DNA from: Candidatus Poseidoniaceae archaeon
GTDB lineage: Archaea; Thermoplasmatota; Poseidoniia; Poseidoniales; Poseidoniaceae
Length of the DNA: 64,000 nucleotides
Assembly: GCA_016777125.1 (NCBI GenBank)
Contig: JADHSC010000005.1
Coordinates: 6,345-70,344, forward strand
Direction: 5' to 3'
The position numbers and the translations under genes were made by a program. The notes beneath the pieces are model-generated. The model was not told the DNA's origin. It saw only the letters and a list, made by a program, of their open reading frames with translations, and searched no databases. Positions 14,203-58,775 of this stretch are shown here, in pieces (position 1 is the stretch's first letter; each line of letters begins with the position of its first letter).

Positions 14203-17112
14203 TTGATAGGTCAACACCTCCCCGTAAATAGGAGAGGGATTTTCTTGAGCAGAACATCTGGCAGCAAACACCTTGCGATTTTGTTTATTTCGCTCATGGT
14301 AATCTCCATGATGCCCCTATCAGTCCCTACCGTTTCTGCGGATGAAGGGAGGGATGCGAACATTCGCCTGACAGTTAATCCATCCGAACAAAATATCAAT
14401 CCTGGAGAATCTGGGGAATACACAGTTCGAGTTTACAATGATGGATCGACTCCAGTAACAATTCAATTGAGTACAGCGGAAGAAGGAACTCAAGAATGTG
14501 GGGCATACACCTCATCCATTACCCAAATCAGTGGCGCAATTGAATCAGGTTCCTATGAAGAAGCGACCATGACTGTTACACTAACGGTCAATGCAGAATC
14601 ATCTTGCGACACGACCGTTTCAGCGACTGCAACAGAATCTCCAGATCCTCCAGAAATACCAGGACAACCTGTCACTAAAACTTCAACAGTGACGACAACC
14701 GCTGGCGATGGATCTGGCAACGCACTTTTCGGAGTTGATTTGTCAATGGTCGTTTCGAGTAAGACATGGGGCGGTGAAGAGACGACAGAATGGACTCTCG
14801 TTGTTGAAAACACCGGCCAACAACAAACAGATGTCAATCTCGTAGTCGATGAGGTTACAGATGGTGCTTGTTCAAACCCAGGCAGTCTTACGCCATCGCT
14901 ATCGGAAACATCGGTCTCACTTGGTGCAAACGAAACAGAAGATGTCATTGTTTCTCTTGACATAGATAACGAAGAAGAAGCCGATAAGTATTGCTGGGAG
15001 ATTACTGGAACAGTCTCTTCTGACCCGACAGGCAATTCTTCTGATACTCAAGAATTTGATATTACAGTCCCCGTTTTGAAGGAATGTGATTTAACTCTCT
15101 CAAAATCAACATTGAGCATCGAGCCTGATGCTGATGCTACACTAAAGGCCATATTTACAAACGAAGGTAACTCTGATTGGACTATTCAAGCTGCTGCTGC
15201 AGGTCCAAAGGCTGGATGGGTTGCATTTGTTGGCGGCACCAGTGGGCTACTGCCATATAGTGGTGGAAGCGGAACCAAGGAATTCAATCTCAAAGTCACT
15301 CCAGATGACTCCGTTATAGCCGGAGAAGAGCAAACCATAACCATCCAAGGGAAAGATGGAACCGCCGTAAAATGCAGTTCAGAACTGACAATCGTCGTAG
15401 GACAGTCCTATGGTGCAACGATTTCAATGACATCCTCCCAACTTAACAACATAGAACCAGGTACGAGTGCGACAACATCTGTCACAGTTGAAAATACAGG
15501 CAATGGTGTTGATAACTTCAGAATTACACCTTCTTCTCTACCAGCGGGATGGAGTGTTGAACTCGATCAGAACGTTATTTCACTCGATTCAAAGCATACG
15601 CCTCAGAGGAAAGACACGGTCGATGTCACCGTCTCTCTACCAACAGATGCGTTAGCGACTGAGGTCGTGAACATCGTACTTTCAGTCTCGCCTTCATCAG
15701 GTGGTCAAGCCTACGATGAAGTGACTCTTGCAGTCTCTGTTGCAGCTGTTCATGAGTTTGAGGCAATATCGACAGCAATGACGCAAACTGGTAAGAATAA
15801 TAATGAGGTCAAATTCCCATTTGAAATCGATAACATTGGAAACGTGGAAGATAGTTTCAGACTAAGCGTTATCAGCCAAACGGCCACTCCAGGATGGTCT
15901 TTTTACTTCGAGGATGCTGCAGGTAATCGATTTACTGAAATCGCAGTCGATGCTCGTACCTCCAAGCAAATTTTCTGTGTTGTTACAGTTACAGATTCCG
16001 ATGAATATACTACTTTGACCATCAGAGTTACCAACAAAGGTGATTCCAATAGCATTGATGAAGATTCGGACGGTATTCCAGACAATCAACGTGAGTTGAA
16101 ATTCACAGCTTTCCTAACGACCCGGGACTATGCAATGGATGTTCGTCTTGAAAATGGTGGGCTTGATGGAAGAACTGGCGAATTAATTCTCGCTCCAGGT
16201 GATGATGAAACAATCGGTCTCTGGCTGAGGAATATGGGTAATGGTGATGACATTGCAATGATTGAACTCACAGGTCTTACAGGCATAGCCACACGAACAG
16301 TATATTCAACTGGCTTGCCCATTGGTGACGAATTAGCCATTCCGTTCGGGTATGGGATCTGGGATGAGAACAACAGCCGTTTCGTTACCGATGCATCGGG
16401 AGCTCCGTATCTTGAAAATACAGCAAATGCTGCAGAAGAGGAAATGTACTTCACACTTAATCTCAGTCAAGGCCATAGCGTCAAGCCTTATGAGATGTAT
16501 CTCGAACTCAAAATCGATGTTAATGAAGCGACTTTGACTGGTGAGGGAGGCAATCTCAACATCGTTGTTACAAGTAAATCTAACGCTGCAAACCGTAGTG
16601 GGACGGCAACAGTTTCCCTGAGTGTCAAAGAGATTTTCAATCTTCAAATCCTCCAACCTACTCAAGATTCGTTCGAAATAACATACCCTGAGCCTTTGAA
16701 GTTTGATGTTCAAATTCGTAATGATGGAAATGTTCGGACAATGACTGAAATCTTTTCTTCAGACAATCTTCGTGGTTGGATGGTCACCCTAGAGGAACCT
16801 GTTAACGATAATGACTGTGAATTGATAGAGGTTAACCGTCTTGAATGTTGGATTGATCAAGGCGAAACCAAGAATGTTACTGTAATTGTCAAATCACCTT
16901 ACGATGCAGAATTCAAAGATACGTTTGATTTCACCATCTCTGCCCAACCCGAGGAAATTGGAGTTATCGGGCGTACGAACCAACAATTCGATGTCACAGG
17001 TGACGTTGAATCATCGCTCTTCGGATTTGCAGAGGATGCCACAGTTGCTGTGGTTGGTGGTGGGTTCATCTGCCTCATTCTTCTCGGATTCATTATTAGC
17101 CGCCGTAGTTGA
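14203..17112 (+). CDS. secreted surface protein with CARDB-like repeats and a C-terminal TM anchor (PGF-CTERM-like variant)
   Basis: Signal peptide LAILFISLMVISMMPLSVPTVSA-DEG. Repeated NPGESGEYTVRVYNDG-type modules. C-terminus GGGFICLILLGFIISRRS*. TTG start preceded by AGGAAAGGA. Confidence 0.65.
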   Translation: MIGQHLPVNRRGIFLSRTSGSKHLAILFISLMVISMMPLSVPTVSADEGRDANIRLTVNPSEQNINPGESGEYTVRVYNDGSTPVTIQLSTAEEGTQECGAYTSSITQISGAIESGSYEEATMTVTLTVNAESSCDTTVSATATESPDPPEIPGQPVTKTSTVTTTAGDGSGNALFGVDLSMVVSSKTWGGEETTEWTLVVENTGQQQTDVNLVVDEVTDGACSNPGSLTPSLSETSVSLGANETEDVIVSLDIDNEEEADKYCWEITGTVSSDPTGNSSDTQEFDITVPVLKECDLTLSKSTLSIEPDADATLKAIFTNEGNSDWTIQAAAAGPKAGWVAFVGGTSGLLPYSGGSGTKEFNLKVTPDDSVIAGEEQTITIQGKDGTAVKCSSELTIVVGQSYGATISMTSSQLNNIEPGTSATTSVTVENTGNGVDNFRITPSSLPAGWSVELDQNVISLDSKHTPQRKDTVDVTVSLPTDALATEVVNIVLSVSPSSGGQAYDEVTLAVSVAAVHEFEAISTAMTQTGKNNNEVKFPFEIDNIGNVEDSFRLSVISQTATPGWSFYFEDAAGNRFTEIAVDARTSKQIFCVVTVTDSDEYTTLTIRVTNKGDSNSIDEDSDGIPDNQRELKFTAFLTTRDYAMDVRLENGGLDGRTGELILAPGDDETIGLWLRNMGNGDDIAMIELTGLTGIATRTVYSTGLPIGDELAIPFGYGIWDENNSRFVTDASGAPYLENTANAAEEEMYFTLNLSQGHSVKPYEMYLELKIDVNEATLTGEGGNLNIVVTSKSNAANRSGTATVSLSVKEIFNLQILQPTQDSFEITYPEPLKFDVQIRNDGNVRTMTEIFSSDNLRGWMVTLEEPVNDNDCELIEVNRLECWIDQGETKNVTVIVKSPYDAEFKDTFDFTISAQPEEIGVIGRTNQQFDVTGDVESSLFGFAEDATVAVVGGGFICLILLGFIISRRS

Positions 17113-33798: not shown

Positions 33799-36618
33799 AT
33801 GGCAAGAGGGGCGTATGTGGTCTGCTGTGTATTGCTGATGATGACTTCATTGGTCCCAACCTCTGTGAGTTCATACGATAGCGGTGGCATTCAAGCATCA
33901 GATTCCACTCTCAGTATCATGCCTGCAAGTCCTACGTCTGGTGGTTCAATTACAGGTTCATTGACGCTTTCGAACACGAATTCAGAAAAAGCGTTCGATG
34001 TTGAATATTCATTCTACAAAAACGGAATATCTACAGCCAACCGCCTCATTACAAGCACTGTCAATATCGAAGCTAATGGTTTTGAAATTGTGACGGCACA
34101 ATGGGACAATCTGGTCGAGGGTGAAAACAAACTTTGGGTCACGTATTCCTACAATGGACAAACCGAAGTTGAGTTTTATCATTCCTTTACCGTACTGGGA
34201 TTGCCGAATCTCAGAGTTACAGAAACAATTCTGACTCCAAGCACTGATCTTCATTCTGGCGATATTATTTCACTGAGTGCAAAGGTAAGTAACATCGGCT
34301 CAGTTGACGCTCAAGCATCATATCTTGGAATTAATTACCCTGGTTCGATTGAAGATGTAGAACTTCAAACTCCAGCGATTAATGCCAGCGAATATGCATG
34401 GGTCAACACGACCTTTACCGCACCTGTATCAGGTTCTTACGATCTCATCCTAACTCCAGACGCCCGAGATGAGGTATTGGAATCAACCGAACAAGGAAAA
34501 GATGAAATCGTTCAATTTGTCATTGAACCAAGAATGGATCTATCACATGTTGGCGAGATACTTATTGTGCCCACAGAGGGTTCCCTTACTGGTCCATGGG
34601 CCGTCTCAGGTACGATTGCAAGAGAGTCAGGAGAAGGCACACTTGACGTTCCAATGGTCATTGAACTACGAGAAGGTGCCTCCACTGTCCGTTCGCTCCA
34701 ACCGTTCACCGTAAGTGTCTTTGGAACAGGATATTCTCAACATGCATGGACAACATCGATTGAAAGTGCGAACATTGCTGGATTGAGCAACGGTCAATAT
34801 TCGCTTGTTGCTCGTATTGACCCATTCCAGACGGGTGGGTTTGTGCAAGAGAGTATGGAAAATGACGACCATGTTACAACGTTCACTCTTCCCGAGATAC
34901 CAGACGTTTATGTTGACCCACTTGCTTTACCAAACTTGACTTCTGTCTCAGCTGGTTTCCCAATCGATTGGTCGATGACGGCCACGAATACTGGCGACAT
35001 TTCTGTTGGCGGTAACTTCCTCTATTCATGGGAAGGTCAAGAGTTCCAATCTGGTCTCATCACTCTCCAGTCAGGTAGCAGTTACACCTACACAGTTTCC
35101 TTGTCAACCTTGTTGGGTGCTCATACAGCGGAACTTGATGTTCAATGGCAACCTTCAGTTAATTCATATGATCGAAATCCAACCAATAGTCGTGCTTCAG
35201 GGTCCGTCCTTGTCGAAGCGAATCTGCAACTTGAATGGGATGAGGATACGCAGGTTCTGGTTGACAAAGATGGCGAACTGGCAACCTTCCCACTTGATTC
35301 AGGCGAAGAATACACACTCAGTATTTCTATGAAATCAACCCGAGGGTCAGGCGATGTCACTATTACATGCAAGAACAGTCAGGCAACATGGTCAGTTTCT
35401 GAGATTGTTATTGAAAATCCTGGGGACCGAGAGGAAGTATCCTGTACATTCAAAGCCTCAGGAAAGTTGACAATTGTTCAGTTGGTTCATTCTCCTTCTT
35501 CCACAATGACCGAGACGTTCGAGCGTTCTTACTCAACAGCGTTTATTGATGGTGGAAATGGTGCAAACGAAGAGAATAGCGGTACGGGAACTGCGGTTCT
35601 GATGTTCATTGGAGCACTTGTCCTCATTGGATTCCTCGTCGGTGCAATTCTGCTTACAAGAGACAGAGAAGATGAAGTGGAACGAGATATTTTCAATTAT
35701 TGTCCCTCCTGTGATGGCGAACTTGAAGGCGACGAAAATCGTTGCCCGCATTGTTCGTTCAACCTTCGTAAAGCACGTTCACAGTTCCACGAATGTTCTG
35801 CATGTGGAGAGTCTGTACCTGATCTCATGGAGAATTGTCCATACTGTGGAACAGAGCAAGATGTTCGTTCATATTTCGAGCAACGAGAACGCCGCATCCG
35901 TGAAGTCCCCGAAGAAAAGGAATTGGTTTCACTCCCCGAAGAAGACGAAAACGAAATCGTTAGCGGTACCGAAGATTTCGCTTCTGCTGTCAAAGAATTT
36001 GGGTATGATGAAGATAATCTTGAAGATGAGTGGGATGAGAATGTTGTTGCTGCTGAAGAAGAAGTTACAGCTGCATATGATAGACGGTATGCTGATGAGA
36101 TCTCGATGGAAGATATGACCGATGAGGAAATTGCTGAAATGGAGAATCAGGTCGTTACAACTCTGAAGACTGCAAAGGAAGCATTCGAAGGTCATGATTT
36201 GGATGCATTCCTACCGGATAAAGAGGATCTGAAGACTCTCAAGGACGATGGAACCGACAAGGATGGCGATGCATGGAATACACTCTCTGCAAGCGATGCT
36301 GACATCCGAGGAGACTTGTTCGAAATCACTGGTGAAAAAGGTGTATTGCCTGGCGACAAGGTTGTTGTTGGTATGGGCTTGACAGATAGTTCACTTGCAG
36401 GAAATGAGATCACTGAGGCTTCTCACAATTTCTTAGTTGAAGATGATTCTAAACCACTTTCAACAGATTCGTCTGAACCGAAGAAGGCTGCAAAGCCACG
36501 TCGACGTCCACGCCGAAAGGCAGAATCGGCTAAGGAGACTGCAGATTGTGGCGCCTGTGGTGCAGTCATTGCGGCAGATGCAAAGGAATGCCCAACCTGT
36601 GGTGCAAAGTTCGAATGA
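33799..36618 (+). CDS. surface protein: signal peptide, CARDB-like repeats, TM, cytoplasmic tail with three zinc ribbons
   Basis: Signal peptide VVCCVLLMMTSLVPTSVSS. TM helix TAVLMFIGALVLIGFLVGAILL. Tail carries CPSC-x9-CPHC, CSAC-x9-CPYC and, at the C-terminus, CGAC-x9-CPTC. Confidence 0.7.
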   Translation: MARGAYVVCCVLLMMTSLVPTSVSSYDSGGIQASDSTLSIMPASPTSGGSITGSLTLSNTNSEKAFDVEYSFYKNGISTANRLITSTVNIEANGFEIVTAQWDNLVEGENKLWVTYSYNGQTEVEFYHSFTVLGLPNLRVTETILTPSTDLHSGDIISLSAKVSNIGSVDAQASYLGINYPGSIEDVELQTPAINASEYAWVNTTFTAPVSGSYDLILTPDARDEVLESTEQGKDEIVQFVIEPRMDLSHVGEILIVPTEGSLTGPWAVSGTIARESGEGTLDVPMVIELREGASTVRSLQPFTVSVFGTGYSQHAWTTSIESANIAGLSNGQYSLVARIDPFQTGGFVQESMENDDHVTTFTLPEIPDVYVDPLALPNLTSVSAGFPIDWSMTATNTGDISVGGNFLYSWEGQEFQSGLITLQSGSSYTYTVSLSTLLGAHTAELDVQWQPSVNSYDRNPTNSRASGSVLVEANLQLEWDEDTQVLVDKDGELATFPLDSGEEYTLSISMKSTRGSGDVTITCKNSQATWSVSEIVIENPGDREEVSCTFKASGKLTIVQLVHSPSSTMTETFERSYSTAFIDGGNGANEENSGTGTAVLMFIGALVLIGFLVGAILLTRDREDEVERDIFNYCPSCDGELEGDENRCPHCSFNLRKARSQFHECSACGESVPDLMENCPYCGTEQDVRSYFEQRERRIREVPEEKELVSLPEEDENEIVSGTEDFASAVKEFGYDEDNLEDEWDENVVAAEEEVTAAYDRRYADEISMEDMTDEEIAEMENQVVTTLKTAKEAFEGHDLDAFLPDKEDLKTLKDDGTDKDGDAWNTLSASDADIRGDLFEITGEKGVLPGDKVVVGMGLTDSSLAGNEITEASHNFLVEDDSKPLSTDSSEPKKAAKPRRRPRRKAESAKETADCGACGAVIAADAKECPTCGAKFE

Positions 36619-47332: not shown

Positions 47333-49465
47333 TCATCGGCGAAGTAATGGTAAGAGGGCATTTGCAGCCTTTTCAGCAGCATTTGCAACATCATCAAGTC
47401 GTTGCAAGACACGATACATGTGCATTGCAGCCAGTGGTTCATCATCACCGTTGGTGAAGACATATGCTGCGGCCTTTGCTTCAACACCATCTGCTTCGTG
47501 TTCAATGAGATTGACTTCACGAATCAATGCATAGACTTCATCGACTCCAGCCTTCGTTCTGCCGCTGATGTGGTATTGACGTAAAGCCTCAATCAGATCT
47601 TCATACTTAGCCACTGTTTGAGAAACAATCTCAGCCATTTCAACCAAATTCTCTCGTGCAGTTTCATCTTCCATGAGTGGGCGGAAGGAGAGTTGTTCTG
47701 CTACGTTTTGTGCGTAATCAGCAATTCTGTCCTGGCGACTTACCATGTAGAGGAATGAATCTGAGTCGGCAGCGATACCAAATCTCAGGTCTTGACTTGC
47801 GAGTTCTCGAATCTCAGACTTAATTTTGTCAGCAGTAAATTCTGACTCAACAGTCTCTTCGATTTCTTGACTTGCATCTTCACCAGCACTCGCTTTCTTG
47901 ACAGCAGCAACCATTTTCTCGACGGTTAATTCAACGGCTTCTGCATGCTTGTGGAACAGATCGAATGGAGTTGCCCCATCCTCCTTTGAACTTCCAGCAT
48001 CGGAAAGGGCTTCTTCGACATAAATTTCATTGTCACGAGTTTTCCACATTGCATAGCCAACAGTCATGAAGGCAATTGGAAGAAGAATAATCATTTTGAG
48101 ATTATCTCCGCCTGATGCGATGTAAATTGTAGCAGCACCAAAAGCAGCGACTGGAACACTCGCAACCCAAGAAGCAGCAATCTTTCCAAAGACTCTGAAA
48201 TCCACAGCCTTGGCTCCACCTGCTAATCCTACGCCTACAACGGCACCAACGAGAGTGTGTGTTGTCGATACTGGGACTGCAAGGAAGGGCATAGAGAAGA
48301 TGAGAATTGTTGTTGCAGCTCCAAATTCAGCAGCGAAACCACGTGTTGGAGTAATGTCTGTGATCTTCTTTCCAATCGTTTCCATGACTCTCCAACCCCA
48401 TGTCATCACACCAATAGCAATACCAGCAGAACCGAGAAGAACAAGCCAGAGAGGAATGTCAGCACTTTCCATCAATTGGCCACCATCTTTGGAGAGAACC
48501 TGCCATACTGCAGCCATTGGTCCAATTGCATTGGAACGGTCGTTTGCACCGTGTGCGAATGCGACGTATGCTGCTGTGATAATTTGTAACCAAACGAAGA
48601 TACGTTCTACGCCTCGGAAACCATTGCTTTCTTCATTGATGTCTATTCTCTTGAGAATAAGGAAGAGACAGAATGATGCAATTGCGCCGATTAATCCAGC
48701 GAGCATAAGTGAGTTGATTGGAAGCCATGCAGCCTCTGCAAACGGATCCCATACTCCATTTTCTTTAGCAGGCAACCAGTCTGCTTTGTCATCGATCCAT
48801 TCATTTTTATCGGCCCTAGAGAAAAATCCCTTCAGCGCTTTGAATTGTAGAGCAAGTCCCAAAACAAAGAACGTCGGGAAAGCAAGAATTGGCGCCAACC
48901 ATAGGGAACGTTCCTCAGGATTATCAGAATCTAAGATGAGTTTCTTGATGATGTAGAATGAGAAGAAAGCAAGTAATGCCCCCATTATCGGGCTTGCAAC
49001 CCAACTCATGACGACCTGGCCGACCTTCTCCCAGTTGATGTAGTCTGTACCGTGATCAACTTCCAGAACCAATCCTACACCTATGATTCCACCAATGATG
49101 GAATGTGTTGTCGATACAGGTAGTCCAAATCGTGTTGCGATGGTAAGCCATGTTGCAGCAGCCATCATTGCGGCGATGAAACCAAAGGCAATATCTTGTG
49201 AAATCTTTTGACTAACGCCGCCTTCTTGATCGAAATCAATGACGAGAATGCCTTTGCGAACTGTATCAGTGACCGCATCACCGGCAAAAAATGCACCTGC
49301 GAATTCAAAAATAGCAGCAATAATGACCGCTTGCCTGAGTGTTAATGCACGAGAACCAACAGAGGTACCCATTGCATTTGCGACATCATTCGCACCGATG
49401 TTCCAGGCCATATAGGCGCATACAATTAACGCTAGAGCAATTACAACGACTGTGATTGGTTCCAT
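47333..49465 (-). CDS. PiT-family inorganic phosphate transporter fused to a C-terminal cytoplasmic PhoU/DUF47-like domain
   Basis: NIGANDVANAMGTSVGSRALT and a second GANDRSNAIGPMAAV half (PHO4 repeats). About 230-aa helical C-terminal domain. Confidence 0.8.
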   Translation of the reverse strand: MEPITVVVIALALIVCAYMAWNIGANDVANAMGTSVGSRALTLRQAVIIAAIFEFAGAFFAGDAVTDTVRKGILVIDFDQEGGVSQKISQDIAFGFIAAMMAAATWLTIATRFGLPVSTTHSIIGGIIGVGLVLEVDHGTDYINWEKVGQVVMSWVASPIMGALLAFFSFYIIKKLILDSDNPEERSLWLAPILAFPTFFVLGLALQFKALKGFFSRADKNEWIDDKADWLPAKENGVWDPFAEAAWLPINSLMLAGLIGAIASFCLFLILKRIDINEESNGFRGVERIFVWLQIITAAYVAFAHGANDRSNAIGPMAAVWQVLSKDGGQLMESADIPLWLVLLGSAGIAIGVMTWGWRVMETIGKKITDITPTRGFAAEFGAATTILIFSMPFLAVPVSTTHTLVGAVVGVGLAGGAKAVDFRVFGKIAASWVASVPVAAFGAATIYIASGGDNLKMIILLPIAFMTVGYAMWKTRDNEIYVEEALSDAGSSKEDGATPFDLFHKHAEAVELTVEKMVAAVKKASAGEDASQEIEETVESEFTADKIKSEIRELASQDLRFGIAADSDSFLYMVSRQDRIADYAQNVAEQLSFRPLMEDETARENLVEMAEIVSQTVAKYEDLIEALRQYHISGRTKAGVDEVYALIREVNLIEHEADGVEAKAAAYVFTNGDDEPLAAMHMYRVLQRLDDVANAAEKAANALLPLLRR

Positions 49466-49545: not shown

Positions 49546-50595
49546 ATGGCATCTGGTCCCGGCGATACTTCTTTGCGCAAAATCCAATCAACTGGCGGAG
49601 GGACCTTCACCCTAAGTTTACCAAAACAGTGGGTTACCAAGCAGCATCTGAAAACAAGAGATGCCATTAAGATCGATTGGAGACCGAGCGGAGCGTTACG
49701 ATTGACACCCGTGGAATTTGATAATACGACTGTGAGAACAATAATCTACGATTTAGAAAACCTTCCTGAAGAGAGTCTATTCGACCACCTTATGGGAGGC
49801 TATATCGCAGGCGCTGATATCATAAAAATACGATTTAAGTCTCAGAATGAGAGAATTTTGCGACAACAAATCCGCCGGTTTCTAAGGGCTACTCGCGGCT
49901 TTGAAATGTATTCCGAAGAGGACAATGAATTTGAATTACGGTGCCTTCTCAACACAGGAGATATGCCGATTTCTTCAAGCCTGAATCGTATGTTTTTACA
50001 ACTCTCCAGTTCAATACGAGACATTCTAAGTGTGTTCCAAGGAGAGGATCCAACGTTTCTTGATGATTTGGATGAGCGTGAAAGCGAAATTGATGCTCTT
50101 CTCCATCTCATAGAGCGCCAAGTAAGACTGCTGGTTGACAATTATTCCATCGCAACCAAACTGAATATGACGCGAATTCAATCCCTTGAATCTGGGAATC
50201 TTGCGCGCTCCCTCGAACGCATGATGGACCATGCAGTTCTTATTGGAACAAATGTGAAAGTCAATTACGAGATATTAGCTGATAAAGAGAACAACTCCTC
50301 ACTGAACAAATTACCTGAATGGCAGAACTCGATCAAAGAATTGATGATCAATATACGAATAAGAGACGCCAAGCGAATAGAAGAAGCACGTACAAATCTA
50401 AAGATCATTCAAAATGATCTGATGGAAAACGAGCGAAAACTCTTCCAAAACCCTAAAAAGTATTCTTGGGCACTTCATGAATTATCTGTTTCAGAATCTA
50501 TTCGCCGACTGTGTGCTTATGCCCGGGACTTTGGAGAGTCCCTGATTAATATGAATGCCTACAAAGGAATAAGGCGTGACAGGAAAGGTGTTTAA
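49546..50595 (+). CDS. phosphate uptake regulator: N-terminal AbrB/SpoVT-like swapped-hairpin domain plus PhoU domains
   Basis: IQSTGGGTFTLSLPKQWV (AbrB-like) followed by PhoU-like helical repeats. Markedly AT-rich codon usage. Confidence 0.7.
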   Translation: MASGPGDTSLRKIQSTGGGTFTLSLPKQWVTKQHLKTRDAIKIDWRPSGALRLTPVEFDNTTVRTIIYDLENLPEESLFDHLMGGYIAGADIIKIRFKSQNERILRQQIRRFLRATRGFEMYSEEDNEFELRCLLNTGDMPISSSLNRMFLQLSSSIRDILSVFQGEDPTFLDDLDERESEIDALLHLIERQVRLLVDNYSIATKLNMTRIQSLESGNLARSLERMMDHAVLIGTNVKVNYEILADKENNSSLNKLPEWQNSIKELMINIRIRDAKRIEEARTNLKIIQNDLMENERKLFQNPKKYSWALHELSVSESIRRLCAYARDFGESLINMNAYKGIRRDRKGV

Positions 50596-51011: not shown

Positions 51012-51986
51012 ATGAGCAACTGGGCGCCGCATCTTATCGGCTTGGCCACTCCTCTCTCTGCAATCATCTGTTTGATGATCGGTGGTTGGTGGATTATTGT
51101 CCCCATCGTACTTCTACTCGGAATTTATCCTTTCATGGATACACTTGCTGGCTCTACCACGGTTCATGATATCGAAGACGAAGGAAAAGGTCACGACTTT
51201 ATTGTCCATTTACATGGTCTGCTGGTGCCACTAATTGTTGCAGCGTTGCTGTATCGGGTGTGGGACGGTCTCGGTTCCATTTCCATACTCATCCCAATCC
51301 TATGCGCAGGTCTGGCCACTGGAGCTGCAGGTGTTGTAGCCGCACATGAGCTCGGTCACAGAAAACCTAAATCGTTCAGTTGGTGGCTTGCTCGTCTCGA
51401 TCTTTTCTCCGTTCTTTACCTCCATTTCACTGTTGAACATAACCACACACATCACAAGCATTGGGCCAGAGAAGTTGATCCAACAAGTTCTCCTTGGGGC
51501 AGAAGCATCTATATTCACTTATTGAGAACAATCCCTCTGCAACTAAGAAACGCCTTTAGGATACGCAAAAAAGATGCAACAATATCAGTAATCTTGGAAC
51601 TTAGTTTGTTGATATCTCTTGCAGTTTGGGGAATGGACTACTTTGTTGCCTTCCTTGGTCAAGCAATCATCGCAATCTACCTTCTCGAATTTGTGAATTA
51701 CATCCAACATCATGGTTTACTTCGAGGAGTGGATGAGCGACCAAATGCATCTCATGCATGGGAAAGCCGAAGCCGTTGGTCAAAATATACATTGATGAAC
51801 TTGACACTCCATGCGTCTCATCATCTTCGGTCAAGTACTCCTTATGAGCGACTCAAGCCTCATGATGAATCGCCCCAGTTACCTGGAGGCTATTACCAAA
51901 TGTTCTGGATAGCGTTGATTCCACCACTCTTTCATCGATTGATGAGAAAGCGTGTAGATCATTCTGGTGGTGTTGGTGGAGCGTAG
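51012..51986 (+). CDS. membrane di-iron hydroxylase/desaturase of the AlkB (alkane-1-monooxygenase) / fatty-acid desaturase family
   Basis: Histidine boxes HELGHR, EHNHTHH, NYIQHHGL and HASHH, with TM helices. Confidence 0.65.
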   Translation: MSNWAPHLIGLATPLSAIICLMIGGWWIIVPIVLLLGIYPFMDTLAGSTTVHDIEDEGKGHDFIVHLHGLLVPLIVAALLYRVWDGLGSISILIPILCAGLATGAAGVVAAHELGHRKPKSFSWWLARLDLFSVLYLHFTVEHNHTHHKHWAREVDPTSSPWGRSIYIHLLRTIPLQLRNAFRIRKKDATISVILELSLLISLAVWGMDYFVAFLGQAIIAIYLLEFVNYIQHHGLLRGVDERPNASHAWESRSRWSKYTLMNLTLHASHHLRSSTPYERLKPHDESPQLPGGYYQMFWIALIPPLFHRLMRKRVDHSGGVGGA

Positions 51987-53159: not shown

Positions 53160-53867
53160 ATGCTGACAGTAAACGATTTGACCAAGAGTTTTGGTTCTGG
53201 TTCAAACAGGTTAGATGTACTCAAAGGCGTGGATATGAGCATCACAAAAGGTGAGATGGTTGCTTTAATGGGCCCGTCAGGCTGTGGTAAATCCACGTTA
53301 TTGAATATCATTGGAGGTCTTCTTTCAGCAGATAGCGGGGATATTGATCTTGAAGGCCGTACATACGGACGGCAGAAACCTTCGGAGGTCGTTGACATTC
53401 GACGAAAGGGCGTTGGCTGGATTTTCCAAGACTTCCATCTTGTTCCTTCACTCTCGGCAAAAGACAACGTCGCTATGGCTCTCGAACTTTGTGGCTACAA
53501 GAGCGAAGAAGCTGAGGAGCGTGCAGTTGCCGCTCTAAACGAGGTCGGACTCGGAGATCGAACACATCACATTCCTGACCAACTGTCAGGTGGTCAACAA
53601 CAACGTGTTGCGATTGCTCGAGCGATTGCAGGAAAGCGTTCTATTCTTCTTGCTGACGAACCAACAGGGAATCTTGATATTGCTAGCGGTAAGGAGATCA
53701 TGGAACTGTTCAAGAGATTGTGTAATGATGAAGAGAATCCAATTTCTATCTTGATGGTTACCCACGATCCAGATCTTGCAACACAAGCAGATAGAATGTT
53801 GCTGTTACGTGATGGTAAGACCTTTGCAAGCGACATACGTAGCGCTTGGGGAATAGAGGAGGAATGA
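53160..53867 (+). CDS. ABC transporter ATP-binding protein (MacB/LolD-like)
   Basis: Walker A GPSGCGKST. Signature [14 protein letters not shown]. Walker B LLADEPTGNLD. GGAGGAGAAATC RBS. Confidence 0.85.
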   Translation: MLTVNDLTKSFGSGSNRLDVLKGVDMSITKGEMVALMGPSGCGKSTLLNIIGGLLSADSGDIDLEGRTYGRQKPSEVVDIRRKGVGWIFQDFHLVPSLSAKDNVAMALELCGYKSEEAEERAVAALNEVGLGDRTHHIPDQLSGGQQQRVAIARAIAGKRSILLADEPTGNLDIASGKEIMELFKRLCNDEENPISILMVTHDPDLATQADRMLLLRDGKTFASDIRSAWGIEEE

Positions 53868-53871
53868 TTCT

Positions 53872-56800
53872 ATGTCTGAAGAAACAGAACAAAAGTCCGT
53901 TGAATCAAACGAGATCAAAGAGAATGGCCGTCTCGGAACGTTCATCCACAGAGTCAGAGAACTTCCATCAAATTACAGAATTGCCTTAGTTAGTTCGTGG
54001 CGAAACAAGGAACGAGGCCTTGCAGTCTTTGCAGGAGTCTTCCTTGCGTCTCTTGTTATTACCACCGTTCTTTCCTACGGTGTTGGTCTGAGCCAAATTT
54101 TCCTTTCAACTTCACTCGAGGGTGAACCTGTCGATGCTAAAATTGAATTCGACCGTAAGCCAGTGGAAGGGGCTGAAGGTTGGACAAATAATTCCACAGT
54201 GATGATGGAAGTGTGTGACGAACTTGTTGCGGACTTTGTGGAATTCACAGACTGTGCCTTAACGTTAGGTCGGCAAGGGATTCACGGTGGTGGTTTCTTC
54301 AACGAAGATTTCATTGTTGCTCAACCGCTTGAAATGAGATCCATGGAAGCGAGTGGGAATCCGTTATGGGGCGATATTAACTTCAATTATCCCGAACTGG
54401 AAGATGCAGGTCCACCTATTTCAGAAATGCGTGGAATTCGATTCATGGGCCCAGGTGCATTTGACGGCGAATTGGCAGATCGATTTGGAGGTAATATCAT
54501 CGATGGTCTTGGAGAATGGCCTTCCCCAGAGGAAATGGAGGACCGACGTGGGTTGATTCTTCCATCAAACATTGTATCGGATGCGAGAGCGAACGTTGGT
54601 GACAAAATCGACACACTTTCGTTCGTATATGTCACGCAAACCTCTGAACTTGGTTCCGATTCCATTACCACCGAGAACTGTGTTGGAGAAATCACAAGCG
54701 AAGTAAATGGGCAGACCTATTGCCGAGAAGAATTTGTTGTTGAAAATTTGACCATTCTTGGGGTGTACGATCCTTGGGATTTTGGAAACCCAACGCTTCC
54801 TCCAAATCCTATCTTCGCTTCTCTTACTTCCTTATCGGATGATCAACAACGAACACTCATCGATAACGACCATATCTACCTCTCAATGTCTGTTAACCGC
54901 TCGCTGATTCCATCTTCTTCGACGACTGAAGCAGCAGAATGGCTTGAAGACCTCGGCATGAGAGTCGGTGACAGAGAATATGCAAACGGAACAGTCGAAG
55001 TGTTTTACTTCGATATCGTTAGTGGAACAATCACTTTCCTGCAAATTTTCCTTGGCCTTATCCAAGCGTTTGATTACATCATCATGATTCCAATTGTTGT
55101 TCTATCAATTGCAGTATTGATTTACGGTTTGGTTTTGAGTCTGGAACAACGAAGACGAGAAATCAGTATCCAGCGAGTCATAGGAGCTGATACTCAACGA
55201 TTGAGCGGAATGGTTCTGCTTGAACTATCTGTAATCGCTTTCGCAGGCTGGGTTGTCGGCTACCTGCTTGCAATGATCGCAGTACCGATTGTTCTCTCCG
55301 CAGTAGGATTCTTGGTGTTCTCAGAACTCACAACCGAAGTCAATCCAGCTTTGTCCTTCGGAGCAACACTCTTCACAGCATTTGCAACGTTGGGTGTGGC
55401 ATTGCTCTTCGGACGTAGCCGCACACGTGAATTCATTGAAATGGAAATCGATGAAGGCGTCCGCACAATTTCCAAGAAGCGCCCTCCTCGACGTTGGCTG
55501 CATTGGACAATGTTTGCCATTGGTATGCTCTCCTTTACAGACACTGCTCTTGAGCAAAATGGTAGCGAAGATGGTCTGTATTCGAACTTCTTCCTCGAAG
55601 GACTGTTCGGGATATTTGGCCCGTTCTTCCTCTGGATTGGTGGCGCTCTTCTTCTCGCTTGGCTCGGTGCAAAAGGCCCTTACATCATGCAGTTTATCTT
55701 CGGAAAGACTGCGTTGTTAAAGGATGTGAAGCGTGGATTGAAAGGATCAGGTTCCTCGGAATCCATCAATAGACTCTCGGTCATTATGCTTCTTACGCTC
55801 TCCATTGTAACATTAGCAGCAGTTCAAGGCTACACGGGAACACTCGTCGATGAGAGAACTGCTGATGCGAACGTAGGTTCTGAATTGCAGATGGTCATGG
55901 ATGGACCTCGTTCCCAATCTCAAGTTGAAGCTGTTCTTACTGAATACTATCCTGATGGAGAAATAGTCGCAATGACGGTTCCTCAAATCCTCCTTAGTCC
56001 TACGGCAGGTGGGGATACATACCTAACCTACGTTTTGATGAACAATAGTGATGAAGTGTTACGTTGGAACCAGCAAGCAATTCCGGGAGATGGCTCAGAT
56101 CCTTCAATTTATGGAGGTATGACCTTTTCAGCCGGCGAAGATGCAGCCTACGGTTTGGATTTGTGGGGTTCGGGACGACGAAGTAATGACGCAGAAGACA
56201 TTGTTCTCTCTGCTTCAGATTCTCGCTCTGAAGTGGTCAATTTCACATATAATGACATAGATTTTGTCCCATCGAACATCTCTGAAGAAGATAGACTCGG
56301 AATTTTATTCGCTTTCGCATCAGTCCTAGATACCGACTTGAGTGATACCGATTTGTCAAATGAAAACTTTGCGTATCGAGACTTTGGTCGAACAAATTTC
56401 ATTGGCGCAGATTTAAGCGGTGCAAACTTCTCAGGTGCGAACCTAAGCGAATCAATATTTGTCGATACAAACATCGAAAATACCAATTTTTCAGATGCTA
56501 ACTTGGAAGGAGCAATTTTCTTTTCTCTTGCATCTCTGTTAAGTGCAGAAGACCCAGTACAACCTACATTGGATGAAATTATCGAGCGCATAGGGCTTTA
56601 TGATCTCAGTGTAACAGAAAGCATTGAAGGCATGATCTGTCCAAACGGAGAAACAGCTCCGGATGAGGCATGTACAACCTTCTCTGATTTCTCACAGTTC
56701 CCTGAGTTACTTCAACCATTTTTGTTTATGCAATCGATGGATGTCGTCATCACTCCATCTCAAGAAGAACTGAGATACATCGGAGTACACAGATTCATTC

Positions 56801-57483
56801 CTGGCGTTCCGAGTGCTGCTATGGGCACATCTCTGATTATTTCTGAAGAATCATGGCGAGCATTTGTTGGAGATGAAGATGCGAATTCACACAATTCGAC
56901 AACGTGGATTATCCACCTTCCTGATATCAGTGGAGATGAGTTGAAAGCACTCGCTTCGATCATCGAAGCGGATTCTCGAGTCTCGAGTACGAATGATTGG
57001 AAAACTGCTCACGAAGCAGTTGAACGAGACGGTGGCCTGATCTTTGGAACACCTGGGCTTCTCTCATTGCAATTCGTTGTAGCGAGTATTGCTGCTGTAG
57101 CATCTGCCTTCGTTTTCTTATCGTTGGTACTCACACAACGTCAAAAGGAATTAGCGATTCTCCAAGCGATTGGAGCAAGTCCAAATCAGATTATTCGACT
57201 TGTTCTGTTTGAGATTCTGTCGATTGTTCTTGTTTCTATGTTGCTCGGAATTATTCTCGGTATTGGTGTGGCGTTCTCCTTCAACGGATTCTTCGACGTC
57301 TTCGGGTTCATCTTCCAGATATTTGGTGGAACGTCTACGGTGATTGAACGTGAGTTGGTCTATCCATGGGTTCAACTTGGTTTAGTAACGTTCTCTGTTT
57401 TCGTAGCGGTTGTTCTTGCATTGGTCGTAACAACACGTCGAGCACTCAGCGCTGATCTTGCAAGCGTTCTCAAGGGGGAGTGA
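53872..57483 (+). CDS. ABC permease with two FtsX domains and a ~600-aa extracytoplasmic domain containing pentapeptide repeats
   Basis: FtsX motifs LSLEQRRREISIQRVIGAD and LTQRQKELAILQAIGAS. Ectodomain repeats ADLSGANFSGANLSESIFVDTNIENTNFSDANLEGAIF. Confidence 0.8.
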   Translation: MSEETEQKSVESNEIKENGRLGTFIHRVRELPSNYRIALVSSWRNKERGLAVFAGVFLASLVITTVLSYGVGLSQIFLSTSLEGEPVDAKIEFDRKPVEGAEGWTNNSTVMMEVCDELVADFVEFTDCALTLGRQGIHGGGFFNEDFIVAQPLEMRSMEASGNPLWGDINFNYPELEDAGPPISEMRGIRFMGPGAFDGELADRFGGNIIDGLGEWPSPEEMEDRRGLILPSNIVSDARANVGDKIDTLSFVYVTQTSELGSDSITTENCVGEITSEVNGQTYCREEFVVENLTILGVYDPWDFGNPTLPPNPIFASLTSLSDDQQRTLIDNDHIYLSMSVNRSLIPSSSTTEAAEWLEDLGMRVGDREYANGTVEVFYFDIVSGTITFLQIFLGLIQAFDYIIMIPIVVLSIAVLIYGLVLSLEQRRREISIQRVIGADTQRLSGMVLLELSVIAFAGWVVGYLLAMIAVPIVLSAVGFLVFSELTTEVNPALSFGATLFTAFATLGVALLFGRSRTREFIEMEIDEGVRTISKKRPPRRWLHWTMFAIGMLSFTDTALEQNGSEDGLYSNFFLEGLFGIFGPFFLWIGGALLLAWLGAKGPYIMQFIFGKTALLKDVKRGLKGSGSSESINRLSVIMLLTLSIVTLAAVQGYTGTLVDERTADANVGSELQMVMDGPRSQSQVEAVLTEYYPDGEIVAMTVPQILLSPTAGGDTYLTYVLMNNSDEVLRWNQQAIPGDGSDPSIYGGMTFSAGEDAAYGLDLWGSGRRSNDAEDIVLSASDSRSEVVNFTYNDIDFVPSNISEEDRLGILFAFASVLDTDLSDTDLSNENFAYRDFGRTNFIGADLSGANFSGANLSESIFVDTNIENTNFSDANLEGAIFFSLASLLSAEDPVQPTLDEIIERIGLYDLSVTESIEGMICPNGETAPDEACTTFSDFSQFPELLQPFLFMQSMDVVITPSQEELRYIGVHRFIPGVPSAAMGTSLIISEESWRAFVGDEDANSHNSTTWIIHLPDISGDELKALASIIEADSRVSSTNDWKTAHEAVERDGGLIFGTPGLLSLQFVVASIAAVASAFVFLSLVLTQRQKELAILQAIGASPNQIIRLVLFEILSIVLVSMLLGIILGIGVAFSFNGFFDVFGFIFQIFGGTSTVIERELVYPWVQLGLVTFSVFVAVVLALVVTTRRALSADLASVLKGE

Positions 57484-57486
57484 AGT

Positions 57487-58479
57487 ATGTCGGATATTAC
57501 AAAGAAAAGTATTCTCGAAGCAGATGGCCTGTATCACGTGTACGAATCCAAAGCTGAAGATGGAAACGTTGTCGCTTTGCGCGGTTTGTACATCAACATG
57601 AAAGAAGGTGAAGCAGTTGCGGTTGTAGGGCCTTCTGGGTCTGGAAAATCAACGCTTCTGAAATGTCTTGGAGGATTGATGAAACCAAGTGCAGGTTCAG
57701 TAACGCTTGATGGAAACAACATGACTCGACTGAAAGGAAAAGAGCTGGTACGATTACGTCAAAAGACAGTCTCCTTCATTTTCCAAGAAGGAAACCTTCT
57801 ACCTCATCTGAATGCAAGAGACAATGTGGCTGAACCGTTGCGAAATCAAGGTGTTCGTTCGAAAGAGGCACTGAAAAGAGCTGATGAAATGCTTGAGCGA
57901 CTAAGTATGCCTCATAGAGCGAAAGCCTTGCCAAAGATGCTCAGTGGTGGTGAGCAACAACGTGTTGCAATTGCACGTGCTCTTATCACCAATCCACGCC
58001 TCATCTTGGCTGACGAACCAACAGGTGCACTCGATCCTGTTACGGGACGAGCAGTTCTCGATATCTTCAAAGAATTGAATGAAACTGAAGGTGTTTCGTT
58101 CCTTATTGTAACACACTCGAAAGAAGTAGCCGCGTTTGCTAACAGAAGTCTTGAACTTCGAGATGGTCGATTCGTAGCAGAGCATGGTGCAGAAATCGAT
58201 GTTGAAGATTTGACTGAAGGACGAGAACTCCTTATCGATGACTTAGGAACTGTAACCTTGCCTCCTGATTTGCTTGTACGAATTGGAGGCTCAGGCCGCT
58301 ATTCTGTTGCACTTGCTGAGAGTGGAATGCTTACCTTACAAGGCGAATCATATTCGACAATTGGTGAACTTGTCCTTTCTGCATTCTGTCCTGCTTGTAA
58401 GCATGATTATGGGGACAGTGATGAACAGCAGTGCCCGTCTTGTGGTTCAAGCCGGCCAATGGTGGAGGCTTCTTCATGA
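57487..58479 (+). CDS. second ABC ATP-binding protein with C-terminal zinc-ribbon extension
   Basis: [23 protein letters not shown] and [12 protein letters not shown]-terminal [20 protein letters not shown]. Confidence 0.85.
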
Positions 58480-58775
58480 AACAAATCGTCTCATTTCTGA
58501 GTTATATCGAAGGATTTTCTGCATTGATTCTCTTTGCAGTTGCAATGCCAGTGAAGTATATTGGAGGAGATCCATCGCTTGTCTCTCTTGTTGGACAGAT
58601 TCATGGCTTCCTTTTCCTAGCCTTCCTCGGAGCACTCTTCTATGGAGTTGGAAGACACTGGAACATGACCGCTTTGTTTCATGGATTTATTGCAGCAGTC
58701 GTTCCAGCAGGACCGTTTCTGTTCGATGGAATGCTCATCAGTGGCGAGTATGATCTTGAAGAGAAATCAAACTGA
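58476..58775 (+). CDS. small three-TM membrane protein (DUF3817-like)
   Basis: ATGA overlap with the ABC ATPase. Sequence [50 protein letters not shown]. Confidence 0.5.
   Translation: MKQIVSFLSYIEGFSALILFAVAMPVKYIGGDPSLVSLVGQIHGFLFLAFLGALFYGVGRHWNMTALFHGFIAAVVPAGPFLFDGMLISGEYDLEEKSN

Follow-up and report, generated by a model that had tools for sequence, protein, structure and literature searches.

A four-gene ABC operon of marine group II archaea with two different ATPases and a predicted beta-helix inserted into a duplicated FtsX permease

Marine group II archaea carry a tightly packed operon of four genes in which two different ABC ATPases flank a permease with duplicated FtsX modules. 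Cassettes of the ATPase-permease-ATPase type form a family that is old within the archaea and extends to the Asgard archaea, and a predicted beta-helix inserted into the permease is confined to one Poseidoniales sublineage. This unusual architecture is real. Gene content, fold class, topology, the beta-helix prediction, the history of the insertion and the selective constraint on it were all established by computation. We consider it somewhat more probable than not that the locus encodes a Type VII ABC mechanotransmission complex in which the motor is heterodimeric and an extra module on the outside is used for docking or as a spacer.

Gene content and conservation of the operon

The first-pass annotation of this DNA had set the locus in a haloarchaeal frame. 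We reject this placement, as a GC content of ~45% and 94-95% identity to Poseidoniaceae MAG contigs assign it to the Poseidoniaceae / Marine Group IIa (MGIIa). Archaea of the MGII group have a single membrane. The following features were found in the window, by which we mean the whole stretch of 64,000 nucleotides that was analysed:

51012..51986, + strand: AlkB-like membrane hydroxylase, a context gene conserved upstream in MGIIa, operon membership not shown
53160..53867, + strand: ATPase1, a 235-aa MacB/LolD/DevA-type ABC nucleotide-binding subunit
53872..57483, + strand: permease, 1203 aa, duplicated FtsX, 10 TM helices
57487..58479, + strand: ATPase2, a 330-aa ABC nucleotide-binding subunit, paralogue of ATPase1 with a conserved 95-aa C-terminal extension
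58192..58476, + strand: C-terminal extension of ATPase2 (residues 236-330), with a conserved R-E-L-I-I-D... segment and a Cys4 knuckle
58387..58446, + strand: Cys4 knuckle of ATPase2 (C301, C304, C316, C319)
58476..58775, + strand: DUF3817/TIGR03954 'integ_memb_HG', a 99-aa small membrane protein, fourth gene of the operon

The layout of an ATPase, a permease and a second ATPase had been recognized before and is borne out, with all of its sequence features in place. The gene set was correct for these three genes and overlooked the fourth, the translationally coupled DUF3817 gene. Gaps of 4 nt and 3 nt separate ATPase1 from the permease and the permease from ATPase2, and the DUF3817 ATG overlaps the ATPase2 stop codon as ATGA. 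The ATPase1 ORF is open from 53073, with other possible starts at GTG 53139 and ATG 53073.

Gene order was conserved in essentially all loci that were long enough (80 species-level loci). The operon gene occurs in single copy across about 200 species-level genomes and is also found in Asgard relatives. Throughout the family, the ATPase genes in the compared loci are paralogous and lie one on each side of the permease; ATPase1, upstream of the permease, is 73-78% identical in MGIIa loci. In situ transcription was seen for the orthologue in a coastal MGIIa MAG, gene 441 (= MG2_0480), which was detected in five of seven metatranscriptomes. The fourth gene product matched Pfam DUF3817 (E 1.6e-17) and TIGR03954 (E 2.7e-19, above cut-off). 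Its gene is there in most MGIIa loci that reach far enough downstream, and all six of the non-MGIIa loci examined (L085-L090) lack it. Besides DUF3817, itself uncharacterised, no conserved partner such as an adaptor, hydrolase or chaperone was linked to the operon.

Both ATPases matched Pfam ABC_tran, with E-values of 8.8e-38 for ATPase1 and 9.3e-37 for ATPase2. Their best NCBIfam matches were DevA, YbbA, MacB, LolD and FtsE (E 1e-53 to 1e-64). Those of ATPase1 had E-values of ~1e-60 and all fell under the equivalog cut-offs, including the best one, the DevA family. PDB matches of the ATPases were LolD (E 1e-52), MJ0796, MacB and YbbA. The Walker A, Q-loop, LSGGQ/E signature, Walker B-Glu, D-loop and H-loop motifs are intact in both. 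A pseudogene among the ATPases had been named as a point that would count against the earlier reading; neither is one, since the two proteins, complete in their motifs, are 45% identical over the best BLASTP segment. ATPase2 orthologues are 45-55% identical across phyla, versus 36-41% to ATPase1, and the two ATPases form separate orthologous lines across phyla.

The zinc ribbon described at the end of ATPase2 corresponds to conserved cysteines at zinc-ribbon spacing, which may form a zinc-ribbon or rubredoxin-like knuckle. The pattern CPxC-x11-CxxCG is invariant in MGIIa, MGIIb, a distant relative (L086) and Hodarchaeales. A profile of the tail matched the rubredoxin-like domain of rubrerythrin (E 4.5e-4); Pfam matches to DZR and HypA were weak, and hhalign gave a probability of 46% against AbrB. 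This cytoplasmic tail probably has a regulatory or assembly role.

The flanks of the operon are less constant. The AlkB-like protein matched the alkane 1-monooxygenase structure 8f6t (E 7.9e-31), and 54 loci have its gene upstream in the same orientation, eight of them in direct adjacency (<150 nt). In a subset of MGIIa loci, the gene immediately before the operon, in the same orientation, encodes a TetR regulator with AcrR/MtrR-like best matches; this TetR gene is absent from most loci and from the clade of the window, in which a divergent GMD gene is found instead. An MMPL gene lies downstream in a clade of 47% identity. Since the TetR, GMD, AlkB-like, glycosyltransferase and MMPL neighbours vary among clades, they may reflect synteny rather than function, and the TetR, AlkB-like and MMPL genes are only weak hints of a hydrophobic cargo. 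Elsewhere, the window encodes large secreted-type proteins, among them a PKD protein and a subtilase (S8) that has CARDB.

Permease topology and the beta-helix insertion

Our structural statements on the permease rest on AF2 predictions. The predicted parts of the protein are as follows:

TM helices including stalks, first five (permease residues): TM1 46-83, TM2 382-436, TM3 441-475, TM4 496-530, TM5 541-562
TM helices including stalks, last five (permease residues): TM6 573-600, TM7 630-668, TM8 1043-1089, TM9 1104-1152, TM10 1166-1193
54121..55014, + strand: ECD1, residues 84-381, between TM1 and TM2, net charge -38
55876..56997, + strand: ECD2, residues 669-1042, between TM7 and TM8, MacB/LolC-like core, net charge -49
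56179..56766, + strand: insertion in ECD2, residues 770-965, ~190 aa, lineage-specific
56317..56526, + strand: pentapeptide-repeat beta-helix, residues 816-885, 14 contiguous in-register pentads, about 3.5 coils

The full-length model (pLDDT 79.5, pTM 0.72) contains 10 TM helices and places the ectodomains between TM1-2 and TM7-8. Two stretches of the permease matched Pfam FtsX (E 5.4e-20), in agreement with the double FtsX permease described in the first-pass annotation. As in FtsX-type 4-TM modules, a large extracytoplasmic domain lies between the first two helices, and the ectodomain fold is predicted to be MacB/LolC-like (Porter/Sabre-type). The best Foldseek matches were YbbP (9ge7/9ge6, over about 1200 columns), followed by BceB, LolE/C and MacB. 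The two halves are strongly diverged and have the TM2 coupling motif alone in common, with a coupling helix after TM2 that reads E-Q-R-R-R-E / Q-R-Q-K-E-L.

The predicted cytoplasmic loops are all net positive (+1 to +5), and the external loops contain 0-1 K/R. All 12 N-x-S/T sequons of the permease and its three conserved Cys pairs are in predicted external segments; in ECD1, Cys115/128 and Cys270/284 are invariant among the Poseidoniaceae homologues of alignment A1. From the positive-inside loops, external sequons and Cys pairs, the pentapeptide segment is predicted to be extracytoplasmic, as had been proposed.

From N to C terminus, the insertion consists of a beta-hairpin, a helix, the pentapeptide helix, cap helices and a C-P-[DN]-G-x7-C loop (Cys923/Cys934), probably a disulfide loop. 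The whole insertion has a net charge of -31 over 196 aa, and the pentapeptide helix carries a net charge of -10 and three N-x-S sequons. The A(D/N)LxG repeats that had first drawn attention to the region lie within the 14 in-register pentads. Membership of the PF00805 type takes at least 8 contiguous A(D/N)LXX-type pentads, a number that the insertion exceeds, and the Pfam pentapeptide profile PF00805 matched with E 2.6e-14 in the whole permease and 1.1e-19 in the insert alone (above the gathering score). [quoted passage not shown] The earlier view of a beta-helical external module stands in part: the module is predicted to be external, and rather than being the ectodomain itself, the repeats are part of a ~190-aa insertion inside a MacB-like ectodomain.

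The insertion was kept in every MGIIa species-level genome recovered. It has no counterpart in MGIIb orthologues, other Poseidoniales clades or Asgard relatives, which have the same three-gene cassette. In alignment A2, the closest clades (P0123, P0124, P0126 and P0132) lack it, and in clade P0125 a different insert occupies this site. Considering that the MGIIb and Asgard orthologues are entirely without it, we regard the beta-helix as an accessory to the mechanism rather than its core. Within the permease, the insertion evolves fastest: its identity is the lowest (22-40% vs 84% in the TM8-10 block) and its dN/dS the highest, yet this ratio is 0.08-0.2, and the insertion is under purifying selection. 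Relatives with as little as 47% overall identity still share the pentad register, the length and the C-P-[DN]-G-x7-C loop. In two relatives of 88-89% identity (L007 and L008), the insert alone has a dN of 0.2-0.3 with saturated dS, which suggests allele replacement.

Possible modes of action

The complex that we favour would be of Type VII (MacB-fold) with a 10-TM, YbbP-like topology. Its permease would be pseudo-heterodimeric, with the two strongly diverged FtsX halves joined by TM5-6, and its motor would be a heterodimer of two different ATPases, both catalytically competent. We infer this pairing from gene content and analogy, and mechanotransmission likewise by analogy. In MGIIa, the small DUF3817 membrane protein would be co-translated with the complex. 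As ATP is bound and hydrolysed in the cytoplasm, the bundle of stalk helices would close and open, and this motion would move the two large acidic extracytoplasmic domains, which could work on the outer face of the membrane with no solute crossing. The insertion, gained by the second MacB-like ectodomain in a Poseidoniales sublineage and built around a 3.5-coil quadrilateral beta-helix, would be a rigid, probably glycosylated, projecting accessory module rather than the catalytic core. More speculatively, it may give an extracellular partner or envelope layer a platform on which to dock, or act as a spacer towards it. Equally speculative is the cargo, which by analogy with YbbAP, LolCDE, MacB, HrtBA and BceAB would most likely be hydrophobic or amphiphilic and extracted from, or expelled at, the outer leaflet. 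Mechanotransmission and outer-leaflet extraction have been described for YbbAP-TesA (PMC12646458) and the MacB family (PMC5985334), and the extraction or remodelling of an envelope component, as suggested in the first-pass annotation, is an analogy of this kind.

Other readings of the same features are less probable. The complex could be an FtsEX-like regulator that moves no substrate, the motion of the ectodomain switching an extracellular protease, glycosidase or S-layer-processing enzyme docked on the beta-helix insertion. Type VII FtsEX-EnvC and YbbAP-TesA act via bound extracellular proteins (PMC12646458), pentapeptide helices are documented protein-protein interfaces, as in the exposed edge strand of SV2C that binds BoNT/A (PMC8145042), and secreted-type proteins (the subtilase and the PKD protein) are encoded in the window. 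However, in none of the clades does the operon have a genetically linked candidate partner, the ectodomains are of the full MacB/LolC type, with YbbP and not the smaller FtsX-type ectodomain as best match, and orthologues without the beta-helix would need another docking site. We therefore regard such a regulator as unlikely. Quite unlikely, too, is a MacB/BceAB-type resistance pump or sensor against a membrane-active toxin or antimicrobial peptide of co-occurring plankton, induced through a TetR/AcrR-type repressor, its acidic beta-helix offering cationic compounds a surface to bind or a decoy. The charge of the insertion, the strong structural match to BceB and the TetR gene directly upstream in some MGIIa loci are consistent with it, and relatives are annotated at source as 'ABC-type antimicrobial peptide transport system permease'. 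These names are automatic annotations, though, the TetR gene is missing from the window's clade and most loci, the two-component system of Bce modules is absent, and conservation in single copy across so many genomes, Asgard relatives included, is more suggestive of a housekeeping role in the envelope than of an accessory resistance gene.

The insertion might instead decorate the surface, tolerated there while taking no part in the ABC cycle, as either a glycosylated shield or spacer or a hypervariable patch under virus or grazer pressure, leaving an ordinary YbbP-like transporter with a variable loop. The empty or differently filled site in sister clades, the low identity and high dN/dS of the insertion and the suggested allele replacement point this way. 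Against this, its dN/dS is at or below 0.2, its register, length and loop are held over long distances and all recovered MGIIa species-level genomes have it, which makes this the least probable of the accounts considered here. At the bolder end, and very unlikely, the beta-helix would be the working interface of a new archaeal envelope machine, in which ECD2, driven by ATP, swings the rigid, glycosylated helix and a lipidic cargo is exchanged with an extracellular acceptor or the S-layer. This cargo could be a membrane lipid, a glycolipid, a lipid-anchored protein or a hydrocarbon-derived substrate tied to the AlkB-like hydroxylase. If true, the operon would be the functional equivalent, in archaea, of LolCDE-LolA or YbbAP-TesA, powered by a heterodimeric motor under Cys4 regulation. 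As a corollary, the exposed, fast-evolving helix would be a receptor for MGII viruses, much as the SV2 luminal helix is for neurotoxins.

Relation to known systems

Our favoured Type VII complex most resembles E. coli YbbAP(-TesA) (PDB 9GE6/9GE7; PMC12646458). Both have a single 10-TM permease with two FtsX/MacB modules fused via TM5-6, two MacB-like ectodomains (TM1-2 and TM7-8, periplasmic in YbbP) and separate ATPase subunits. The sequence relation is negligible, with 11-13% identity in structural alignments, and the YbbP equivalog NF041854 scored 16 bits against a cut-off of 999; the permease shares the topology class of YbbP and is not its orthologue. YbbP uses two copies of a single ATPase, YbbA, whereas here two anciently diverged ATPase genes are present, one with a Cys4 tail. 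The host here is a single-membrane archaeon, ECD2 bears the pentapeptide-helix insertion, and no TesA-like hydrolase gene was seen in the operon neighbourhoods.

MacB, LolCDE, FtsEX, HrtBA and BceAB have in common with the present system the FtsX-type TM fold, a coupling helix after TM2, a Porter/Sabre-like ectodomain and LolD/MacB/FtsE-type NBDs (PMC5985334). Such Type VII systems are described as mechanotransmitting at the outer face of the membrane (PMC5985334). MacB, FtsX and HrtB are homodimers, LolCDE has heterodimeric permeases with one NBD species, and BceB is fused with one ectodomain. A fused permease with two different NBD genes is absent from the arrangements in the 2018 review (PMC5985334). 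Three further assignments were rejected. The ADOP duplicated permease family (TIGR03434) scored 58 bits against a cut-off of 622. BceAB-type systems have 10 TM helices, a single ectodomain at TM7-8 and a BceRS-like pair, whereas the present permease has two large ectodomains and the operon has neither a histidine kinase nor a response regulator next to it. For a tripartite MacAB-TolC / DevBCA pump, the adaptor and outer-membrane duct genes are absent from the operon and the flanks of the loci examined.

The insertion has a close parallel in SV2A/B/C, MFS proteins with a luminal pentapeptide-repeat domain, which likewise place a short quadrilateral beta-helix in an extracytoplasmic loop of a polytopic transporter. 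The SV2 helix has 4.5-5 coils and is N-glycosylated, and the helix here has three sequons. The origin is certainly independent, given the MFS rather than Type VII ABC superfamily and the eukaryotic host. What is known of the use of the luminal domain of SV2 is that toxins take it as their receptor (PMC8145042). Cyanothece Rfr32, Arabidopsis TL15 and Nostoc Alr5209/Np275 are extracytoplasmic pentapeptide proteins as well, but small and soluble and not transporter insertions. In Rfr32, a lumenal protein, a pair of helices stabilised by a disulfide caps the repeat helix (PMC8145042). The cap helices and Cys923/Cys934 loop of the insertion resemble this cap.

In heterocystous cyanobacteria, heterocyst glycolipids are exported by DevBCA, a MacB-type ABC system. 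Their deposition needs HglK, a pentapeptide-repeat membrane protein (PMC8145042). The repeats of HglK form the C-terminal domain of a 4-TM protein, which may act at septal junctions. The likeness is an analogy, no orthology being shown, and the glycolipid hints here are the variable glycosyltransferase and GMD neighbours. With HglK and DevBCA-HgdD, a pentapeptide module and a Type VII ABC exporter share an envelope-lipid pathway; in the permease described here, the two are fused.

The operon, its host and its age

The core of the operon is formed by three tightly spaced plus-strand ORFs, which encode an ATPase (ATPase1), a permease and a second ATPase (ATPase2).

Features of the operon and its upstream neighbourhood (window coordinates, strand, description)
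51012-51986, +, homologue of AlkB (alkane 1-monooxygenase), Pfam label FA_desaturase; match to PDB 8f6t, E 7.9e-31
53160-53867, +, ATPase1; ABC_tran (Pfam, E ~1e-37)
53872-57483, +, permease of 1203 aa; two FtsX stretches (Pfam, E 5.4e-20)
57487-58479, +, ATPase2; ABC_tran (Pfam, E ~1e-37)
58192-58386, +, conserved segment R-E-L-I-I-D[17 protein letters not shown], ATPase2 residues 236-300, between the NBD and the Cys4 knuckle; kept even in Hodarchaeales
58476-58775, +, DUF3817/TIGR03954 'integ_memb_HG' membrane protein of 99 aa; its ATG overlaps the ATPase2 stop as ATGA

The ATPase1 frame is already open from 53073, and GGAGG lies immediately 5' of the ATG at 53160. Both ATPases contain Walker A, Q-loop, LSGGQ/LSGGE, Walker B-Glu, D-loop and H-loop, and they are 45% identical over the best BLASTP segment. 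With all catalytic motifs intact in both, a pseudogenised or degenerate ATPase is ruled out, and the two different flanking ATPases of the first-pass annotation are, by computation, competent NBD paralogues. The C-terminus of ATPase2 (CPACKHDY...CPSCGSS) is a Cys4 motif that is invariant in every relative examined, which bears out the zinc-ribbon-like end proposed for the downstream ATPase. Used as a profile, this motif resembles a domain of rubrerythrin, the rubredoxin-like one (E 4.5e-4). A comparison of the ATPase2 tail with the AbrB/SpoVT looped-hinge motif, using approximate sequences, gave a weak hhalign match of 46% probability over only 20 columns, and a Pfam search of the tail found no AbrB/SpoVT-like match.

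The DUF3817 gene, which the first-pass annotation did not include, is a fourth operon member that is translationally coupled to ATPase2. It occupies this position in most MGIIa loci reaching far enough downstream, and was not found in the six non-MGIIa loci examined (L085-L090). Because these include a clade that bears the pentapeptide beta-helix without DUF3817 (47% permease identity), a joint gain of DUF3817 and the helix is inconsistent with this distribution. A convergent Cupin_7 gene terminates the operon unit downstream.

The operon had initially been ascribed to haloarchaea. This attribution fails, as the GC content is ~45% and the permease is 92-95% identical to MAG proteins and contigs of Candidatus Poseidoniaceae/Poseidoniales archaeon; the GC content and the 94-95% identity to Poseidoniaceae MAGs rule out a haloarchaeal host. 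The best 80 species-level genome matches were all Poseidoniales, the original MG-II assembly CM001443.1 among them, and the operon is conserved in ~200 species-level genomes. Essentially all MGIIa loci of sufficient extent have the order ATPase (~240 aa), permease, ATPase (~330-370 aa), which is kept in MGIIb (L085), in other Poseidoniales clades (L087-L090) and in a relative of 22% identity (L086). A two-ATPase double-FtsX cassette is also found in a Hodarchaeales (Asgard) locus (L091:2776-7526), where ATPase2 retains the 'LTLPDNIL' segment and the Cys4 knuckle; its Asgard occurrence spans Hodarchaeales and Kariarchaeaceae (proteins P0162 and P0171). Since the cassette, including the Cys4 tail, extends to Asgard archaea, sequence comparison indicates that it is an old archaeal module. 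ATPase2 proteins across phyla are 45-55% identical among themselves and 36-41% identical to ATPase1 proteins, which argues that the duplication predates these lineages.

Permease fold and the pentapeptide insertion

Hydropathy and a full-length AlphaFold2 model (residues 4-1203, 63-sequence alignment, mean pLDDT 79.5, pTM 0.72) concur on 10 TM helices. The model has two extracytoplasmic domains, ECD1 (~300 aa) between TM1-2 and ECD2 (~375 aa) between TM7-8. Each predicted cytoplasmic loop has a positive net charge (+1 to +5), external loops have 0-1 K/R, and the net charges of ECD1 and ECD2 are -38 and -49. Every one of the 12 N-x-S/T sequons maps to a predicted external segment, as do the Cys pairs 115/128, 270/284 and 923/934, which are invariant across the Poseidoniaceae alignment. 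From this pattern, the ectodomains are predicted to face outwards. Because the best structural match of the full model was E. coli YbbP (Foldseek E 1e-13, ~1200 columns), we assign the modelled permease to the Type VII (MacB-fold) ABC permeases and to the YbbP topological class, both described previously (PMC12646458, PMC5985334). Membership of two NCBIfam families was rejected: the permease scored 16 bits against a cut-off of 999 for the YbbP equivalog and 58 bits against 622 for ADOP. The two permease halves share only the TM2 coupling-helix motif (33% over 49 aa).

Pfam places pentapeptide repeats at permease residues 824-883 (E 2.6e-14), and 14 contiguous in-register pentads span residues 816-885. 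These include the repeat string quoted in the first-pass annotation, whose double FtsX, classical repeats and extracytoplasmic region were all recovered. That the repeats themselves are extracytoplasmic was also upheld by a topology check, in which charge pattern, sequons, Cys pairs and AlphaFold2 model concur. In the alignment of wider relatives, the repeat module is a ~190-aa insertion (residues ~770-965) with conserved ECD2 on either side; we read the beta-helix module as an insertion within a MacB-like ectodomain. The same alignment lacks the insertion in the MGIIb (Thalassarchaeaceae) orthologue P0123 and in the Poseidoniales clades P0124, P0126 and P0132, while in P0125 an unrelated insert occupies the same ECD2 site. 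The insertion further comprises an N-terminal hairpin and helix as well as C-terminal cap helices, and its C-P-[DN]-G-x7-C loop is kept in all helix-bearing clades.

An exhaustive homologue search of 1.84 billion 50%-identity representatives returned 79 matches at E<=1e-30. Among full-length relatives, TM helices and a pentapeptide run occurred together only in the clusters at 59% and 47% permease identity and in one fragment cluster. About 30 other double-FtsX clusters (20-49% identity) had no pentapeptide run, and the remaining pentapeptide matches had 0-2 TM segments each. Repeating the search with a profile of diverse relatives retrieved the same large 58% clade and widened the set of relatives no further.

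Computation also traced the history of the insertion and the constraint on it. Identity to the 59% clade falls from 83-92% in the TM1, TM7 and TM8-10 blocks, through 70-73% in the central TM2-6 region and 46-58% in the cores of the ectodomains, to only 22-40% in the insertion. Against relatives of 94-95% identity, dN/dS is ~0.01 for TM segments, ~0.05 for the ECD cores and 0.08-0.2 for the insertion. The insertion thus appears to be under constraint, yet it is the most relaxed part of the permease. Compared with window 56179-56766, two relatives of 88-89% identity (L007:6001-9591 and L008:5218-8808) have a dN of 0.2-0.3 and saturated dS in the insertion alone, and a dN of 0.01-0.07 over the rest of the permease gene. 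Such a pattern hints at recombination that replaced the allele, or at hypervariability confined to this region.

Genomic neighbourhood and expression

[quoted passage not shown] The AlkB-like protein has the His boxes HELGHR, EHNHTHH and HASHH, and ocean expression of MGII alkB genes has been reported (PMC13488336). In 54 MGIIa loci an AlkB-like gene lies upstream on the same strand as the operon, but it is directly adjacent in only eight; an AcrR-like TetR, GMD or unknown 2-TM gene intervenes in the remainder. We therefore rejected it as an operon member and kept it as conserved neighbourhood. The gap between the AlkB-like gene and ATPase1 contains a poorly conserved, divergently oriented minus-strand gene (165-234 aa) in L042, L047, L050, L059, L063, L064, L067, L074, L079 and L084, filling the slot held by TetR or GMD in other clades. 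Its product has two hydrophobic, probably TM, segments (by eye) and an acidic tail with a conserved G-[AG]-F-W motif at its end.

Three non-MGIIa Poseidoniales clades have GT4 glycosyltransferase gene pairs directly 5' of the cassette (L085:1494-3859, L087:710-3099 and L088:762-3191), and an MMPL/RND-type transporter gene lies downstream of it in the helix-bearing 47% clade (L088:8721-11606). The neighbouring genes loosely point to lipid/hydrophobic chemistry; plain synteny fits equally well.

Two phosphate-related genes form a conserved pair upstream of the AlkB-like gene: one encodes a PhoU-domain protein whose N-terminal segment resembles AbrB by eye (49546-50595, +), and the adjoining one a phosphate transporter of the PHO4 family with a fused PhoU_div domain (47333-49465, -). 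The window also encodes, on the plus strand, a series of very large proteins that are probably secreted or located at the surface: a protein with a PKD domain (1769-4240, 823 aa), an ORF without Pfam match (4316-8986, 1556 aa), an S8 subtilase with CARDB (9693-14177, 1494 aa), an Ig-like protein (14203-17112, 969 aa) and a CARDB and CBM_4_9 protein with double zinc ribbons (33799-36618, 939 aa).

The permease orthologue in a coastal MGIIa MAG, gene 441 (MG2_0480, arCOG03124), was detected in five of seven metatranscriptomes, with coverage far exceeding that of gene 984, the other FtsX gene. The 'ftsX-like permease' reported among highly transcribed MGIIa genes (Damashek et al., PMC9723583) is probably this orthologue.

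Proposed working and comparison with known systems

By analogy with YbbAP, LolCDE, MacB and FtsEX (PMC12646458, PMC5985334), the ATPase1/ATPase2 heterodimer would close on ATP. Four stalk helices would then bundle and both ectodomains would move, with the work taking place on the outer side of the membrane rather than across it. More speculatively, the pentapeptide helix may serve as an accessory, rigid and acidic and probably glycosylated, for docking a partner or reaching towards the surface layer, and the cargo might be a hydrophobic or amphiphilic molecule.

The same machine could instead be an FtsEX-like regulator of an extracellular enzyme; we consider this unlikely. We have somewhat less faith in a resistance pump under TetR control, for which a TetR gene lies next to the operon in some loci and GMD or a 2-TM gene in others. 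We would be more surprised still if the beta-helix were a functionally neutral or virus-shaped decoration: the insertion is the most relaxed part of the permease, yet apparently constrained.

Marine Group II archaea, to our knowledge never cultured, count among the most abundant archaea of the plankton. In this ecologically important group the system is solidly real, widespread and mechanistically intriguing. Should the helix prove to be a functional interface, pentapeptide-repeat proteins would gain one of their few defined roles outside the cell, and there would be a way to study how archaea with a single membrane service the outer leaflet or S-layer. Otherwise, it would be a clean case of a module inserted into a mechanotransmission ectodomain, in convergence with SV2.

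Relatives are publicly annotated only as 'pentapeptide repeat-containing protein' or 'FtsX-like permease'. Our searches of the literature turned up neither a Type VII ABC permease described as having a pentapeptide insertion in its ectodomain nor an account of the archaeal two-ATPase Type VII family. A search for FtsX and pentapeptide architectures gave nothing relevant, the gene appearing only as a supplementary-table annotation line (MG2_0480, arCOG03124). The MacB-family arrangements that a 2018 review lists (PMC5985334) do not include a fused permease with two different NBD genes.

The operon is part of an uncharacterised, archaea-wide Type VII branch extending to Asgard archaea. Two features are undescribed for the bacterial paradigms: in the branch, what we infer to be an obligately heterodimeric NBD pair with one Cys4-tailed subunit, and in MGIIa, the modelled pentapeptide beta-helix grafted into a MacB-like ectodomain. 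YbbAP is the closest system in topology and fold, but the operon differs from it in sequence and in having two ATPase genes instead of one. In architecture, the nearest precedent for placing a pentapeptide helix in an external loop of a transporter is SV2, which is unrelated and eukaryotic (PMC8145042). Cyanobacterial HglK and DevBCA suggest that both module types may be paired functionally.
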